From: Chiloscyllium plagiosum
Lineage: Eukaryota
Assembly (NCBI RefSeq): GCF_004010195.1
Contig: NC_057718.1
Coordinates: forward strand, 76,685,829-76,705,828
Length of the DNA stretch: 20,000 nucleotides
Direction of reading: 5' to 3'
The position numbers and the translations under genes are program-made. Shown here in pieces: positions 8,137 to 20,000 of the stretch (its first letter is position 1; the number at the start of each line of letters is the position of its first letter). The notes beneath the pieces are model-generated. The model worked only from the letters and a program-made list of their open reading frames with translations. It was not told the origin of the DNA and did not search any database.

Positions 8137-8636
8137 NNNNNNNNNNNNNNNNNNNNNNNNNNNNNNNNNNNNNNNNNNNNNNNNNNNNNNNNNNNNNNNN
8201 NNNNNNNNNNNNNNNNNNNNNNNNNNNNNNNNNNNNNNNNNNNNNNNNNNNNNNNNNNNNNNNNNNNNNNNNNNNNNNNNNNNNNNNNNNNNNNNNNNNN
8301 NNNNNNNNNNNNNNNNNNNNNNNNNNNNNNNNNNNNNNNNNNNNNNNNNNNNNNNNNNNNNNNNNNNNNNNNNNNNNNNNNNNNNNNNNNNNNNNNNNNN
8401 NNNNNNNNNNNNNNNNNNNNNNNNNNNNNNNNNNNNNNNNNNNNNNNNNNNNNNNNNNNNNNNNNNNNNNNNNNNNNNNNNNNNNNNNNNNNNNNNNNNN
8501 NNNNNNNNNNNNNNNNNNNNNNNNNNNNNNNNNNNNNNNNNNNNNNNNNNNNNNNNNNNNNNNNNNNNNNNNNNNNNNNNNNNNNNNNNNNNNNNNNNNN
8601 NNNNNNNNNNNNNNNNNNNNNNNNNNNNNNNNNNNN
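8137..8636. other. Assembly gap, exactly 500 N
   Basis: Run of N from 8137 to 8636; the round number suggests a placeholder of unknown true size. Confidence 0.99.
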
Positions 8637-8789
8637 TGTGAATGTTACCACGGACCGTTTCCGTCTGAATGGGACAGACGGTGTGATCCAGGAGAACTAC
8701 CTGCAGGGGAAGTTTGGGAATATGATGACCTTGTGTGCCATGCTGCCACTGCTGGTCTTCAGCTGCATCAACTCCATCCTCCTTCCACG
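8637..8789 (+). CDS. SLC29A1: ENT1-like equilibrative nucleoside transporter, internal exon (end of extracellular loop 1 and TM2); 5' part lost in the N gap
   Basis: Reads VNVTTDRFRLNGTDGVIQENYLQGKFGNMMTLCAMLPLLVFSCINSILLP(R), resembling human ENT1 FNNVMTLCAMLPLLLFTYLNSFLHQR (recalled). Donor CG|GTACGC at 8790, phase 2, splitting the Arg codon as in human ENT1. Confidence 0.93.
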
Positions 8790-8802: not shown

Positions 8803-10473
8803 CTCACAGGCTACTCACCGGGTCACAGACCAGATCACCGGGTCACAGGCTACTCACCGGGTCACAGGCTACTCACCGGGTCACAGGCCAGATCACCGGG
8901 TCACAGGCCAGATCACCAGGTCACAGGCTACTCACCTGGTCACAGGCCAGATCACCAGCTCACAGGCTACTCACCGGGTCACAGGCCAGATCACCAGGTC
9001 ACAGGCCAGATCACCAGGTCACAGGCTACTCACCAGGTCACAGGCCAGATCACCAGCTCACAGGCTACTCACCGGGTTACAGGCTACTCACCAGGTCACA
9101 GGCTACTCACCGGGTCACAGGCCAGATCACCAGCTCACAGGCTACTCACCGGGTCACAGGCTACTCACCGGGTCACAGGCTACTCACCGGGTTACAGGCC
9201 AGATCACCAGGTCACAGGCTACTCACCGGGTCACAGGCTACTCACCAGGTCACAGGCTACTCACCGGGTCACAGGCCAGATCACCAGCTCACAGGCTACT
9301 CACCAGGTCACAGGCTACTCACCAGGTCACTGGCTACTCACCAGGTCACAGGCTACTCACCAGGTCACAGGCTAGTCACCCGGTTACAGGCTACTCACCA
9401 GGTCACACGCTAGCTCACCTGGTTACAGGCTAGCTCACCTGGTCACAGGCTACTCACCAGGTCACAGGCTACTCACCTGGTAACAGGCCAGCTCACCTGG
9501 TCACAGGCTGCTCACCAGGTCACAGGCCAGCTCACCTGGTCACAGGCCAGATCACCAGGTTACAGGCCAGCTCACCAGGTCACAGGCCAGATCACCTGGT
9601 CACAGGCTAGCTCACCAGGTCACAGGCTAGCTCACCTGGTCACAGGCCAGATCACCAGGTTACAGGCCTGCTCACCTGGTCACAGGCTAGCCCACCAGGT
9701 TACAGGCCAGCTCACCTGGTCACAGGCCAGATCACCTGGTCACAGGCTAGCTCACCTGGTCACAGGCCAGCTCACCAGGTCACAGGCCAGCTCACCTGGT
9801 TACAGGCTAGCTCACCTGGTCACAGGCTAGCTCACCAGGTTACAGGCTAGCTCACCTGGTCACAGGCCAGCTCACCTGGTCACAGGCCAGCTCACCAGGT
9901 CACAGGCCAGCTCACCTGGTCACAGGCTAGCTCACCAGGTCACAGGCCAGATCACCAGGTTACAGGCCTGCTCACCTGGTCACAGGCTAGATCACCAGGT
10001 TACAGGCCAGCTCACCAGGTCACAGGCCAGCTCACCTGGTCACAGGCTAGCTCACCAGGTCACAAGCCAGCTCACCAGGTCACAGGCCAGCTCACCAGGT
10101 CACAGGCCAGCTCACCTGGTTACAGGCTAGCTCACCAGGTCACAGGCTATCTCACCAGGTCACAGGCTATCTCACCAGGTTACAGGCTATCTCACCAGGT
10201 TACAGGCCAGTTCACCAGGTCACAGGCTAGCTCACCAGGTTACAGGCTATCTCACCAGGTCACAGGCCAGTTCACCAGGTCACAGGCTAGCTCACCAGGT
10301 CACAGGCTATCTCACCAGGTCACAGGCTATCTCACCAGGTTACAGGCTATCTCACCAGGTTACAGGCCAGTTCACCAGGTCACAGGCTAGCTCACCAGGT
10401 TACAGGCCTGCTCACCTGGTCACAGGCTATCTCACCTGGTTACAGGCCAGCTCACCAGGTAACAGGCTAGCTA
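8803..10473. repeat. 19/20-bp minisatellite, about 84 units (GGTCACAGGCTAGCTCACCA-type)
   Basis: The 19-mer GGTCACAGGCTACTCACCR mixes with the 20-mer GGTCACAGGCCAGATCACCA to about 9480, then strict 20-bp register to the end. Confidence 0.98.
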
Positions 10474-10539: not shown

Positions 10540-11456
10540 AATAGAAACTAGGAGGAGGAGTAGGTCATTCGGCCCTTCTAGCCTGATCTGCTATTCAGTC
10601 GGATCATAGCTGACCATCCAACTCAGGACCTGGTTGTCATTTTGTCACCTTTAATCCCCTCAGCCCGAAGAACCAAACGTCTCTTTCTTCAAAACATTTG
10701 TCCTGAACCACTTTCTGTGGTAGAGATCTCCACACGCTCCCCCATGTCTGGCTGCAGCCAGTTCCCCTTGTCTCAGTCCAAAATGGCCGCCTCTGTAACC
10801 TCACACAGTCATCCCCATCCTTTTGAACTCCCCAGTCATTGGAAAGATCTTTCCTGTGTTCACCCTGTCAAGTCCTGTTCAAAGTTTGTAGTTTTCGATG
10901 AGATCACTTCCTGGTTTTTCTAAACTCCAGTGAAAATAATCCTAACTGATCCAGTCTGTCCTCATCCACCAGCCCTGCCATCCCAGGAATCAGTCTGGTA
11001 ACCCTTCGCTGCCCTCCCTCCATCACCAGAACATCTTCCCTCAGATAAGGAGACCAAACCTGTCCACAATACTCCAGGTGTGATCTCCCCAAGATCCGGT
11101 ATAATTGCAGCAAGACCTCCCTGCTCCTGGACTCAAATCCTCTCACTATGTTGGCCAACATCCCATTTCCCTTCCTCACCGCCTGCTGTACCTGCACGCT
11201 TACTTTCAGAGACTGGGGTACAAGGACACCCAGGTCCCATTGCCCCTGCCCCTTTCCCAACCTGTCCCCATTCAGATCATCATCTGCCTTCCTGACCCCC
11301 CCCAACCCCTCACATTTATCCACATTATACTGCATCTGCTCTGTATTTCCCCACTCCCTCAGCCTGTCCAAATCCCACTGAGACATCTCTGACTGCTCCT
11401 CACAGCTCACCCTCCCACCCAGCTTTGTGCTGTCTGCAAACCTGCAGAGATTACAT
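10540..11456 (-). mobile_element. CR1-clade LINE remnant (RT C-terminal half to 3' UTR)
   Basis: FADSTKLGGRVSCEE...MQYNVDKC...VQQAVRKGNGMLANIVRGFESRSREVLLQLYRILGRSHLEYCGQVWSPYLREDVLVMEGGQRRVTRLIPGM. Confidence 0.92.
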
Positions 11457-13414
11457 TATCCCACTGATCCCCGCGGTATCCCACTGATCCCCGCGGTATC
11501 CCACTGATCCCCGCGGTATCCCACTGATCCCTGCCGTGCCCCACCGAGCCCCGCTGTATCCCACTGATCCCCGCGGTATCCCACTGATCCCTGCAGTATC
11601 CCACTGATCCCCGCGGTAACCCACCGATCCCCGCGGTAACCCACTGATCCACGCGGTAACCCACTGATCCCTGCGGTGCCCCACTGATCCCCGCGGTAAC
11701 CCACCGATCCCTGCGGTGCCCCACCGATCCCCGCGGTACCCCACTGATCCACGCGGTAACCCACTGATCCCTGCGGTGCCCCACTGATCCCTGCGATACC
11801 CCACTGATCCCCGCGGTAACTCACTGATCTCCGCGGTACCCCACTGATCCCCGCGGTACCCCACCGAGCCCCGCGGTATCCCACTGATCCCCGCGGTACC
11901 CCACCGAGCCCCGCGGTAACCCACTGATCCCCGTGGAAACCCACTGATCCCTGCGGTAACCCACTGATCCCGGCGGTAACCCGCTGATCCCCGCGGTAAC
12001 CCACTGATCCCCGCGGTATCCCACTGATCCCCGCGGTAACCCACTGATCCCCGCGGTATCCCACTGATCCCCGCGGAAACCCACTGATCCCTGCGGTAAC
12101 CCACTGATCCCCGCGGTATCCCACTGATCCCTGCCGTGCCCCACTGATCCCCGCGGTATCCCACTGATCCCTGCCGTGCCCCACTGATCCCTGCGGTAAC
12201 CCACTGACCCATGCGGTATCCCACTGATCCCCGCGGTAACCCACTGATCCCCGCGGTAACCCACTGATACCCGCGGTATCCCACTGATCCCCGCGGTATC
12301 CCACTGACCCCCGCGCTATCCCACTGATCCCCGCGGTATCCCACTGATATCCGCGTTATCCCACTGATCCCTGCGGTAACCCACTGATCCCTGCGGTGTC
12401 CCACCGATCCCCGCGGTATCCCACTGATCCCCACGGTAACCCACTGATCCCCGCGGTAACCCACTGATCCCTGCGGTAACCCACTGATCCCCGCGGTAAC
12501 CCACTGATCCACGCGGTATCCCACTGATCCCCACGGTAACCCACTGATCCCCGCGGTAACCCACTGATCCCCGCGATATCCCACTGATCCCTGCGGTAAC
12601 CCACTGATCCCTGCGGTAACCCACTGATCCCTGCGGTAACCCACTGATCCCCGCGGTATCCATCTGATCCCCGCGGTAACCTACTGATCCCCGCAGTATC
12701 CCACTGATCCCCGCGGTACCCCACTGATCCCCGCGGTATCCCACTGATCCCCGCGGTAACCCACTGATCCCCGCGATAACCTACTGATCCCCACGGTAAC
12801 CCACTGATCCCCGCGGTACCCCACTGATCCCCGCGGTACCCCACTGATCCCTGCGGTATCCCACTGATCCACGCGGTATCCCACTGATCCCTGCGGTAAC
12901 CCACTGATCCCCGCAGTAACCCACCGATCCCTGCGGTAACCCACTGATCCCCGCGGTAACCCACTGATCCCTGTGGTAACCCACTGATTCCCGCGGTAAC
13001 CCACTGATCCCCGCGGTAACCCACTGATCCCCGCAGTAACCCACTGATCCCTGCGGTATCCCACTGATCCCCACGGTATCCCACTGATCCCTGCGGTAAC
13101 CCATTGATCCCCGCAGTAACCCACCGATCCCTGCGGTAACCCACTGATCCCCGCAGTAACCCACCGATCCCCACGGTACCCCACTGATCCCCGTGGTAAC
13201 CCATTGATCCCCGCGGTATCCCACTGATCCCCGCGGTATCCCACTGATGCCCGCGGTAACCCACTGATCCCCGCGGTATCCCACTGATCCCCGCGGTAAC
13301 CCACTGATCCCTGCGGTAACCCACCTATCCCCGCGGTAACCCACTGATCCCCGCGGTATCCCACTGATCCCCGCGGTAACCCACTGATCCCTGCGGTAAC
13401 CCACTGATCCCTGC
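11457..13414. repeat. 20-bp CpG-rich minisatellite, about 98 units (CCACTGATCCCCGCGGTAWC)
   Basis: Perfect 20-bp register from 11461 to 13410; substitutions only, no indels. Confidence 0.99.
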
Positions 13415-13469
13415 CCCAAATGCTACATTACAACTTCTAGAAATCACTCATTATCTTGGCCTCGATTGC

Positions 13470-13620
13470 TTCCTGTGGGAGTGAATGCCATCACCCTCCT
13501 GCTCTCTGGGTGAAGACATTTCTCCTCAGCTCGGTGTGAAATGGTTTACTCCTCATTCTCGTCCTGCCATCCCTGGTTTTGGACAATGTCTGATTGGAAA
13601 GCTCCCACATTTGCCTTCCC
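13470..13620 (-). mobile_element. Degraded CR1 ORF2 C-terminal fragment
   Basis: SKTRDGRTRMRSKPFHTELRRNVFTQR resembles the CR1 SRTRGH.LR....F.TE.RRNFFTQR terminus. Confidence 0.65.
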
Positions 13621-13911
13621 TGGTAATTTTCTCTCCACACCCTGACAGAAATGTTTACCGTCCGGTTGTACATCCTCTACCAGGCCTCTCCGGTACTGTA
13701 TTCCCGCTCTTCCCCACTTCCTTTTTCCTGCTTTGCTGAAATCTGAGCAGTTTCCAACCCTCAGGCCTGGTTTCCATTTTTGGCCAATTTGTCTGGCCCT
13801 GGCTATTTCCGAACTTCCCTTGTTAGCCATGGCCCCCCTTTTTTGCTCTGTTATGTTTGTGACAGACAGGAAGGAGAAATTATAACACAAACCCTATCTT
13901 GCTGGAGAAAC

Positions 13912-14625: not shown

Positions 14626-14765
14626 GATCCCAGAGGTGGTCCGGATCTGTGGATGCCTTGCTGCTATCTTCATCCTCTTTCTCTTCACCTCAATCCTGGT
14701 GAAAGTCTCCCTGGAACCCATCGTCTTCTTCACTGTCACCATGCTAACGATTGTCCTTATCAACA
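14626..14765 (+). CDS. SLC29A1: ENT1-like transporter, 140-bp internal exon (TM3 to start of TM4)
   Basis: Acceptor tctcctctctccccaaaatcAG|G and donor A|GTAAGT. Reads (R)IPEVVRICGCLAAIFILFLFTSILVKVSLEPIVFFTVTMLTIVLIN(S) versus human RIPQSVRILGSLVAILLVFLITAILVKVQLDALPFFVITMIKIVLINS. Phases 2/1 join both neighbouring exons in frame. Confidence 0.96.
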
Positions 14766-14799: not shown

Positions 14800-15705
14800 A
14801 CTGTGTGTGTGTGTGTACACGTACTTGAGAGTGAGTAAACGAGTGTGAGTGTGTAAGTGAAAATGTCTTTAAGATACTGGATCAGTAAGTGTGATTTGGA
14901 AGCTAAGTATTGTGTTTTGTGAGTGTGAGCAGTGTGTGTGTGAGTATGTGAATGTGCAGTACAGAGCATGTGTCCACAAGACTGGGTGAGTGTGAGCAGG
15001 TGTGGGAGCCAGTGTATAAGTGTGAATGTGCAGAGTGTGTGTGTATGAGAGTGGGTGAGTGTGAGAGTGTGAGCAAGTGTATAAGTGTGAATGTGCCGAG
15101 TGTGTGTCTATGAGAATGGGTGAGTATGTGAGTGTGAGCAGGTGTGGGAGCTGATGTATAAGTGTGAATGTGCAGAGTGTGTGTGTATGAGAGTGGGTGA
15201 GTGTGTGAGTGTGAGCAAGTGTATAAGTGTGAATGTGCCGAGTGTGTGTCTATGAGAATGGGTGAGTATGTGAGTGTGAGCAGGTGTGGGAGCTGATGTA
15301 TAAGTGTGAATGTGCAGAGTGTGTGTGTATGAGAGTGGGTGAGTGTGTGAGTGTGAGCAAGTGTATAAGTGTGAATGTGCCGAGTGTGTGTCTATGAGAA
15401 TGGGTGAGTATGTGAGTGTGAGCAGGTGTGGGAGCTGATGTATAAGTGTGAATGTGCAGAGTGTGTGTGTATGAGAGTGGGAGCTGTATGTGGGAGCCAG
15501 TGTATAAGTGTGAATGTGCAGAGTGTGTGTCTATGAGAGTGGGTGAGTGTGTGAGTGTGAGCTGTATGTGGGAGCCAGTGTATAAGTGTGAATGTGCAGA
15601 GTGTGTGTGTATGAGAGTGGGTGTGAGTGTGAGTGTGTATGTGAGGGTGCATCAGTGTGAGTGTCTGAGTGTGAGCACCAGTGTGATTGAGTGTGAAGAC
15701 GTGTG
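14800..15705. repeat. GT/GA-rich cryptic microsatellite organised into about 65-77-bp monomers and a 142-bp dimer
   Basis: GTATAAGTGTGAATGTGC recurs 9 times. The variant GCAAGTGTATAAGTGTGAATGTGCCGAG occurs at 15073, 15215 and 15357 (142-bp period). Confidence 0.92.
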
Positions 15706-18361: not shown

Positions 18362-18496
18362 GTTTCGGAGCTGTCCTGCAGGGCAGTATCTTCGGCCTGG
18401 CTGGGTTACTGCCTGCGTTATACACTGCGCCCATCATGAGTGGTCAGGGAATGGCAGGGACCTTCGCAGCACTTGCCATGATCTGCGCCATCGCAA
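18362..18496 (+). CDS. SLC29A1: ENT1-like transporter, 135-bp internal exon (TM4-TM5)
   Basis: (CT)n polypyrimidine tract then ttgcAG|; donor A|GTAAGG. Reads (S)FGAVLQGSIFGLAGLLPALYTAPIMSGQGMAGTFAALAMICAIA versus human ENT1 SFGAILQGSLFGLAGLLPASYTAPIMSGQGLAGFFASVAMICAIAS; much closer to ENT1 than to ENT2. Confidence 0.97.
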
Positions 18497-18627: not shown

Positions 18628-20000
18628 CCTGGGAGGGTTTGATAAGGGACAGTGTAGAGAGAGCTCTACTCTGTATCTGACCCTGTCCTGGGAGGGTTTG
18701 ATGGGGACAGGGTAGAGAGAGCTTTACTCTGTATCTGATCCTGTCCTGGGAGGGTTTGATAAGGGACAGTGTAGAGAGAGCTCTACTCTGTATCTGACCC
18801 TGCCCTGGGAGTGTTTGATGGGGACAGGGTAGAGAGAGCTTTACTCTGTATCTGATCCTGTCCCTGGGAATGTTTGGTGGGGACAGTGTAGAGAGAGCTT
18901 TACTCTGTATCTGACCCTGTCCTGGGAGAGTTTAATGGAAACTGTGTAGAGGGAGCTTTACTCTGTATCTGATCCTGTCCTGGGAGTGTTTGATGGGGAC
19001 AGTGTAGAGAGAGCTTTACTCTGTATCTGACCCTGTCCTGGGAGAGTTTGATGGAAACTGTGTAGAGAGAGCTTTACTCTGTATCTGACCCTGTCCTGGG
19101 AGTGTTTGGTGGGGACAGTGTAGGGAGAGCTCTACTCTGAATCTGACCCTGTCCTGGGAGTGTTTGGTGGGGACAGTGTAGAGAGAGCTTTACTCTGTAT
19201 CTGACCCTGTCCTGGGAGAGTTTGATGGAAACTGTGTAGAGAGAGCTTTACTCTGTATCTGACCCTGTCCTGGGAGTGTTTGGTGGGGACAGTGTAGGGA
19301 GAGCTCTACTCTGAATCTGACCCTGTCCTGGGAGTGTTTGGTGGGGACAGTGTAGAGAGAGCTTTACTCTGTATCTGACCCTGTCCTGGGAGTGTTTGGT
19401 GGGGACAGTGTAGAGAGAGCTTTACTCTGTATCTGACCCTGCCCTGGGAGTGTTTGGTGGGGACAGTGTAGAGAGAGCTTTACTCTGTATCTGACCCTGC
19501 CCTGGGAGTGTTTGGTGGGGACAGTGTAGAGAGAGCTTTACTCTGTATCTGACCCTGCCCTGGGAGTGTTTGGTGGGGACAGTGTAGAGAGAGCTTTACT
19601 CTGTATCTGACCCTGCCCTGGGAGTGTTTGGTGGGGACAGTGTAGAGAGAGCTTTACTCTGTATCTGACCCTGCCCTGGGAGTGTTTGGTGGGGACAGTG
19701 TAGAGAGAGCTTTACTCTGTATCTGACCCTGCCCTGGGAGTGTTTGGTGGGGACAGTGTAGAGAGAGCTTTACTCTGTATCTGACCCTGTCCTGGGAGTG
19801 TTTGATGGGGACAGGGTAGAGAGAGCTTTACTCTGTATCTGACCCTGTCCTGGGAGTGTTTGATGGGGACAGGGTAGAGAGAGCTTTACTCTGTATCTGA
19901 CCCTGTCCTGGGAGTGTTTGATGGGGACAGTGTAGGGAGAGCTATACTCTGTACCTAATCCCATGCTGTCTCTGTCCTGGGAGTGTTTGATGGGGATTGG
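18628..20000. repeat. 58-bp tandem repeat (about 23 units, runs off the window) with one 69-bp unit
   Basis: CCTGGGAGTGTTTGRTGGGGACAGTGTAGAGAGAGCTTTACTCTGTATCTGACCCTGY (for example 19501-19558); 69-bp unit at 19907-19975. Confidence 0.98.

Follow-up and report, generated by a model that had tools for sequence, protein, structure and literature searches.

A 20-bp minisatellite derived from the reverse-transcriptase motif SGVPQGSV of a CR1-type LINE and its likely spread among old LINE copies in Chiloscyllium plagiosum

The 20-bp minisatellite analyzed here derives from the SGVPQGSV-coding stretch of a CR1-type reverse transcriptase (RT), a source confirmed by comparison with related loci. The array likely arose only once, and together with an adjoining RT tract it likely spread by non-allelic gene conversion into the matching site of other old CR1 copies. 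We put the probability of the whole account, in which the 20-bp stretch was duplicated once at an AGTG repeat, expanded and copied by conversion into other old copies, at about two in three. The parts of it that are shown are the source and register of the unit, the relatedness of the arrays and their near flanks, and a bounded tract of high identity in diverged hosts. The window, i.e. the whole stretch of 20,000 nucleotides that was analyzed, corresponds to C9:76,685,829-76,705,828 in a 3.56-Gb assembly of 101,977 contigs, which was also the genome searched; 25-40 candidates were scored in each DNA search. The features are listed in Table 1.

Table 1. Coordinates of the features in the window and of the second group of loci
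Feature	Position	Strand	Remarks
3' end of old host CR1 copy	10540..10915	minus	no paralog above 75% identity among 40 scored
RT tract, ~540 bp	10916..11456	minus	~90-99% identity common to six other loci; putative conversion tract
3' junction	11457..11465	minus	last partial unit abuts RT remnant; 51 bp of L002 (583-633) and L003 missing
20-bp minisatellite	11457..13414	minus	97 full units and a partial unit at each end; from SGVPQGSV coding sequence of CR1-type RT
3' part of different CR1 copy	13405..13630	minus	joined to array at 8-nt AGGGATCA match
Host-gene exon, equilibrative nucleoside transporter (SLC29A-like)	18364..18495	plus	PF01733, E 1.5e-13
Second-group loci	C43 12.66-13.96 Mb and three unplaced contigs		L008, L014, L016, L019, L022, L030, L241-L248

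TRF analysis of the 20-kb window placed the array at 11460-13411, with a period of 20, 97.6 copies, 88% matches and 0% indels, a head-to-tail arrangement within the 10-100 bp unit size of TE-derived minisatellites. The phased units run on the minus strand from 13405 down to 11466 and translate as SG(L/I/V/A)P(R/Q)G, and the same strand reads on into NVIS / FADSTKLGGRVSCEE. The array, its unit and its same-strand run into an RT remnant, as described in a sequence-only reading of this DNA, were thus confirmed. Among the 97 units, position 7 was T, A or G in 50, 32 and 15 units and position 14 was G, A or C in 69, 27 and 1. Two points had escaped that reading: none of the 97 units equals the common single-copy 20-mer, and the upstream flank is another CR1 copy. 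A 35-nt pattern spanning two units gave 303 exact matches in the genome versus 0 for the reversed control. The G-quadruplex pattern G3N1-7 matched all along the array (37 motifs); hairpin folding of the repeat gave z values of -1.4 to -3.8 with weak centroids and is uninformative for a repeat.

The source of the unit was evident at two loci with both flanks intact. In L002 and L003, 7 and ~32 units, respectively, interrupt a continuous RT exactly at SGVPQGSV, with upstream RT sequence before the array and LGP..MSD..FADSTK after it, so that TE sequence borders the unit in register on either side; L002 reads in frame as KQQAVT-SGIPQGS. These loci bear out the proposal that the SGVPQGSV coding sequence gave rise to the unit. 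Exact genome matches to the single-copy motif numbered 800 for the G-type and 11,766 for the A-type. The CR1 3' end was rejected as a source of the unit, as only 8 nt match there and the paralogs indicate the RT motif. The RT remnant of the window had no Pfam match when searched alone; it was 62% identical to the natural copy L098 over 138 aa (E 2e-54), and both L098 and L121, another natural copy, matched RVT_1 (PF00078). This domain and the observed motif order, SGVPQGSVLGP ~20 aa before FADDTK, are those of a CR1-type LINE. A genome search with the window remnant returned 7 non-self loci at 88-96% identity, followed by loci at 84% or less (40 scored of 8,239 candidates). The name CR1 is taken over from the sequence-only reading and is provisional.

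The AGTG repeat postulated 20 nt apart in the motif was found in single-copy elements. The first step would then have been a single duplication of the SGVPQGSV-coding 20 bp by slippage or unequal exchange at this repeat, and the second the expansion of the doublet into an array. The exact flanking repeat AGTG is 4 nt long, and GA..AGTG versus GATCAGTG matches at 6-7 of 8 positions in the six in-register hosts; 4 nt is less than the 5-10 bp of the Haber-Louis model, which counts against a birth step at AGTG. The suggested polarity, with G7 and A14 (Gln) ancestral and CGG (Arg) derived, agreed with the background single-copy states: the motif was found in 36 of 40 copies examined, with G7 in 28, A14 in 34 and T7 in none of the 36. 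The short L002 array was closest to the single-copy state and carried mostly ancestral bases.

Several results point to a single lineage of arrays. In 15 of the 16 arrays or array contigs, all but L002, the frequency of derived G14 was 0.44-0.91; among the background copies it was present in 2 of 36, and T7, which those copies lack, was common in the arrays. The six in-register hosts shared 38 rare derived columns; 200 sextets drawn at random from 37 background rows, three duplicate rows being left out, averaged 8 and reached 34 at most. In trees built with 16 of the 40 background rows, the array hosts formed one group for the flank at -130..0 (6 rows, support 90/84) and for that at -260..-130 (5 rows, L002 having a gap; support 93/90), group-level supports that do not reach the level starred by the tool; none of 500 label shuffles scored as low as the array-host grouping. 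In the tree of the -400..-260 flank the array hosts were not one group. Their upstream flanks are thus related over ~260 bp, at only 66-94% identity. From these shared bases and flanks it is likely that the array arose only once.

A 5' junction was visible in 7 arrays and was in register in 6 of them, L002, L003, L061, L134, L135 and L137. Four 3' junctions were visible: two were intact, the window lacked 51 bp and L061 passed into non-CR1 DNA. Nine further contigs consisted of array only. On whether each array sits at the PQG motif of an independent CR1 copy, the junctions are mostly in register, but the arrays look like one lineage, with derived bases and near flanks in common.

Recurrent birth, with a separate origin of every array at the PQG motif of the CR1 copy that carries it, was the route favored by the sequence-only reading; it is very improbable and already largely refuted. 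What speaks for it are independent doublets in other subfamilies, two of 20 bp (L145 and L146) and others of 12-25 bp. These two were the only 20-bp doublets in a second, abundant subfamily with 11,766 exact copies of the motif, and all doublets at the motif stay at about two copies, none having expanded. Doublets of any period (12-25 bp) numbered 11 at the motif versus 15 at a control site ~45 bp upstream; these are raw counts rather than per-copy rates, the control-site figure being one of pattern matches, and the reversed-pattern controls gave 4 and 3. The motif was accordingly rejected as a duplication hot spot, being duplicated no more than the control site. The 800 exact G-type copies held four more doublets of 15-24 bp in RT context. 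The long arrays, moreover, have derived bases and flank ancestry in common, and no independent long in-register array was present among those inspected. Look-alike arrays of a 21-mer on C41, a 17-mer and a 23/24-mer on C37, a 20-mer on C27 and a 19/20-mer on C87865/C91580 were rejected, having no in-register RT flank, and the 15-mer (L133) and 20-mer (L234) arrays lay on flankless contigs.

A GGGATC- or CAGGGAT-like core in common with the unit was noted in arrays of 21 bp (L128/L152, C41:9.66 Mb), 23/24 bp (L228, C37:34.07 Mb), 15 bp (L133) and 20 bp (L234). L129, L131 and L132 are arrays of 19-20 bp, the latter two beside SINE-like sequence; their units resemble what we take to be the 5' tRNA-like part of a SINE. 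In six copies of the young subfamily (L143, L144, L147, L148, L149 and L151), GGATC stood directly before the motif with no full second unit, as if a few bases had been templated from 20 nt downstream.

Downstream of the array, the window, L002, L063 and L070-L074 were 90-99% identical over the aligned stretches; L074 and L002 look like the same locus. The 7 copies matched by a diagnostic 32-mer had a regional distribution: the last 3.7 Mb of C3 contains four, and C9, C37 and an unplaced contig have one each. Beyond the tract identity dropped to background, and for the 3' end of the window the 39 non-self matches among 40 scored were at 67-75%. Window-derived columns changed in the same way, from 36/48 in the tract to 5/48 beyond it in L002, from 34/48 to 4/52 in L070, from 30/47 to 10/62 in L071 and from 31/46 to 7/61 in L072, i.e. 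64-75% inside and 8-16% outside, with a background fraction of 0.05-0.13. L072 switched from host to donor and back to host in register. In L073 the donor-like part ended near a ~450-bp insertion flanked by a CTCCTTA duplication, with host-like sequence beyond. High identity was thus bounded, the hosts continuing in register at background identity, as in a conversion tract. The shared 3' ends predicted by retrotransposition and the shared unique flanks predicted by segmental duplication were both absent. Since the tract is bounded and these two signs are absent, we infer non-allelic gene conversion. The array would, as a third step, have been copied into the matching position of several old CR1 copies by homology-directed break repair from an ectopic template.

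Some results count against conversion. The host copies are only ~75% alike, under the quoted optimum of 89-100% identity; the array hosts L134, L135 and L137 had no visible downstream flank, and the tract copies L070-L073 had no visible array. When the upstream flanks alone were tested by permutation for clustering of incompatible sites, no significance was reached (p 0.31 and 0.32), and the partner switching seen in identities and trees is therefore tentative. W-to-S changes in the window tract stood at 34:11 versus a pooled 739:854, and some background copies were equal (fraction up to 0.74), so that GC-biased conversion is suggestive only. A matching upstream query gave nothing above 78%; the apparent preference for the RT segment may be partly ascertainment, as the query selected copies sharing that segment. 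Apart from these results, two other pairs of old copies were nearly identical over 0.9-1 kb: L018 and L023 (C100913) at 99%, differing just upstream of the shared part, and L115 and L117 (C2) at 96%.

A single birth of the array in a CR1 copy then still subject to retrotransposition in trans, its daughters diverging while their middle was kept alike by local exchange, would account for host flanks related over ~260 bp at only 66-94%, which imply an old spread, and minisatellite dispersal inside mobile elements has been described in PMC6947457. LINE copies have their 3' ends in common, however, and here the window-derived bases beyond the tract were about at background, the 3' end of the window had no close paralog (Table 1), and the far upstream flank did not group. 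We regard this explanation as unlikely.

Short templated duplications, such as break-induced copying of ~1 kb, could have dropped array and tract at places with no resident in-register CR1. The 5' junction of the window on only 8 nt of homology would suit them, as would L061 ending in non-CR1 DNA and L070 beginning after it. Yet six of the seven 5' junctions were in register, in the window, L002, L070, L071 and L072 the host goes on as CR1 3' sequence whose identity is that of the background, and no unique flank was held in common save by L002 and L074. Such duplications are quite improbable.

The window copy itself is a rearranged derivative: upstream of the array lies the 3' end of a different CR1 copy, and the join at AGGGATCA would fit microhomology-mediated rearrangement. 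Two later microhomology-type deletions may have shaped this copy as a fourth step. Loss of the LGP..YINDLD segment had been placed at the birth of the array; the segment is kept in L002 and L003 and missing only in the window. Birth in situ at the window locus is not supported either, since the array and tract found there are members of a small set of relatives. The sequence-only reading was thus supported on source, AGTG spacing and polarity and not supported on segment loss at birth, in-situ birth and the recurrent route.

Whether the shared tracts might be chimeras of a fragmented, gap-rich assembly was weighed against independently assembled contigs. The assembly contains many array-only fragments among its 101,977 contigs, no contig among those listed bridged the upstream junction of the window, and the boundaries in L070-L073 are known from the assembly alone. 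On the other hand, the tract copies differ by 1-10% in a nested manner, and a separately assembled 397-bp contig from run X1, which may be the source sample of the assembly, crossed the tract/host boundary of the window with 1 difference. Tandem joints of the unit were present in runs X1 and X6, and in run X16 of a second organism, organism C. In its run X20 a 329-bp tract contig with 18 differences was found at a depth of 39.5 versus ~3-5 for intron contigs, a depth that is not a copy number. Assembly chimerism is in our judgment scarcely credible, and the tract and the array appear older than the split of the two organisms. The contigs of organism C spanned neither array junction of the window locus, and no unconverted orthologous allele was seen.

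A second group of loci was homogenized over the same RT segment. L008, L014, L016, L019, L022 and L030 were 91-100% identical over the overlapping segment and mostly 60-88% beyond it, and no array was seen in the loci of this group. Its diagnostic 34-mer had 8 copies, five within 1.3 Mb of C43 and three on unplaced contigs. Because this array-free group was homogenized over the same segment, the array is probably a passenger and not a driver. One G3N1-7 motif was present in 6 of 8 tract rows versus 1 of 28 background rows, and in 0 of 4 second-group rows; a G-quadruplex is not required as the driver, since the second-group rows in the alignment are without the motif.

The array probably lies in an upstream intron of the transporter gene, on the opposite strand, between putative exons near 8637-8789 and 14627-14764. 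These two exons, which had no Pfam match alone, are presumably part of the gene, to judge by ENT proteins. No sign of function for the array was seen in the host gene. Other repeats lie close by. A second, unrelated 20-bp array (84.7 copies, 8804-10472) begins a few bases after the putative exon end, ends ~70 bp from the CR1 tail and had no match in the other fetched loci. Other putative introns of the gene hold a 58-bp array (22.8 copies, 18628-19953) and a compound TG-rich array (14979-15664), and ~500 N (8137-8635) stand just before a putative exon.

The birth of minisatellites from TEs and conversion between TE copies are both already known. Minisatellite birth at flanking repeats of 5-10 bp in TEs, as in the model of Haber and Louis (1998) and in Alu-derived minisatellites, is reviewed in PMC6947457 and PMC9659126, and Ahmed and Liang (2012) counted 7,276 human TE-derived repeats (PMC3389668), a list that may hold LINE-ORF2 cases. 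As in the Haber-Louis and Alu cases set out there, a short internal stretch of a dead TE with a short direct repeat was duplicated and expanded here; unlike them, the array comes from the coding sequence of a conserved RT motif of a CR1-type LINE with an exact repeat of 4 nt, and it occupies one homologous site in several diverged hosts. Satellites related to LINE ORF2 or CR1 include chicken HinfI/CR1, Phodopus PROsat and seal Pvc20; HinfI includes a CR1 segment, and the match of PROsat to L1 ORF2 covers a small region (PMC9659126, PMC6947457). Our array resembles all three, as these reviews present them, in being tandem DNA from LINE ORF2 or CR1 sequence, and differs from HinfI and PROsat in that the whole unit is a 20-bp piece still in its element. 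Among the LINE-derived satellites tabulated in the two reviews, no PQG-motif or shark case is named.

Non-allelic conversion has been described among Alu copies (PMC8230782, PMC6598467) and HERV LTRs (PMC4921805), with an optimum at 89-100% identity (PMC8230782) and a range of ~10 kb for Alu (PMC8230782, PMC6598467). Bounded tracts of near identity, hybrid copies and a dependence on proximity are common to those cases, as far as these accounts go, and to ours. Here, unlike there, the hosts are ~75% alike, the copies are separated by megabases or sit on separate chromosomes, two groups were homogenized over the same RT segment, and a minisatellite appears to ride along. Chromosome ends of sharks have a higher GC content and shorter chromosomes more simple tandem repeats, according to PMC10620051, and higher substitution rates near chromosome ends are given in PMC13100897. 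The literature search, made largely in open-access papers, found no report of the 20-bp repeat or of shark CR1 conversion cliques. What is new is a ~540-bp tract 90-99% identical among 7 loci with background 3' ends, a pattern that fits ectopic gene conversion; what sets the case apart is that conversion has likely carried a minisatellite, over megabases, into LINE fossils that had diverged.

One genome holds several stages in the life of one minisatellite, from the motif in single copy through doublets that stalled and an array of 7 units to arrays several kb long. The rough rarity of the first step is 2 in about 12,000 copies, and the data suggest that expansion is the limiting step. More tentatively, and in our estimate at slightly less than even odds, old CR1 fossils may form regional conversion cliques, in which a ~0.5-kb RT segment is overwritten among copies that are ~75% alike, separated by megabases and in some cases located on different chromosomes, and a minisatellite homes to the same codon without transposition machinery. 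If such cliques are real, divergence-based TE ages would be wrong in these regions, and LINE homology could provide a path for the spread of multi-locus minisatellite families. Should the conversion reading hold, it would offer a testable route of spread for multi-locus minisatellites and a caution for the dating of shark LINEs.
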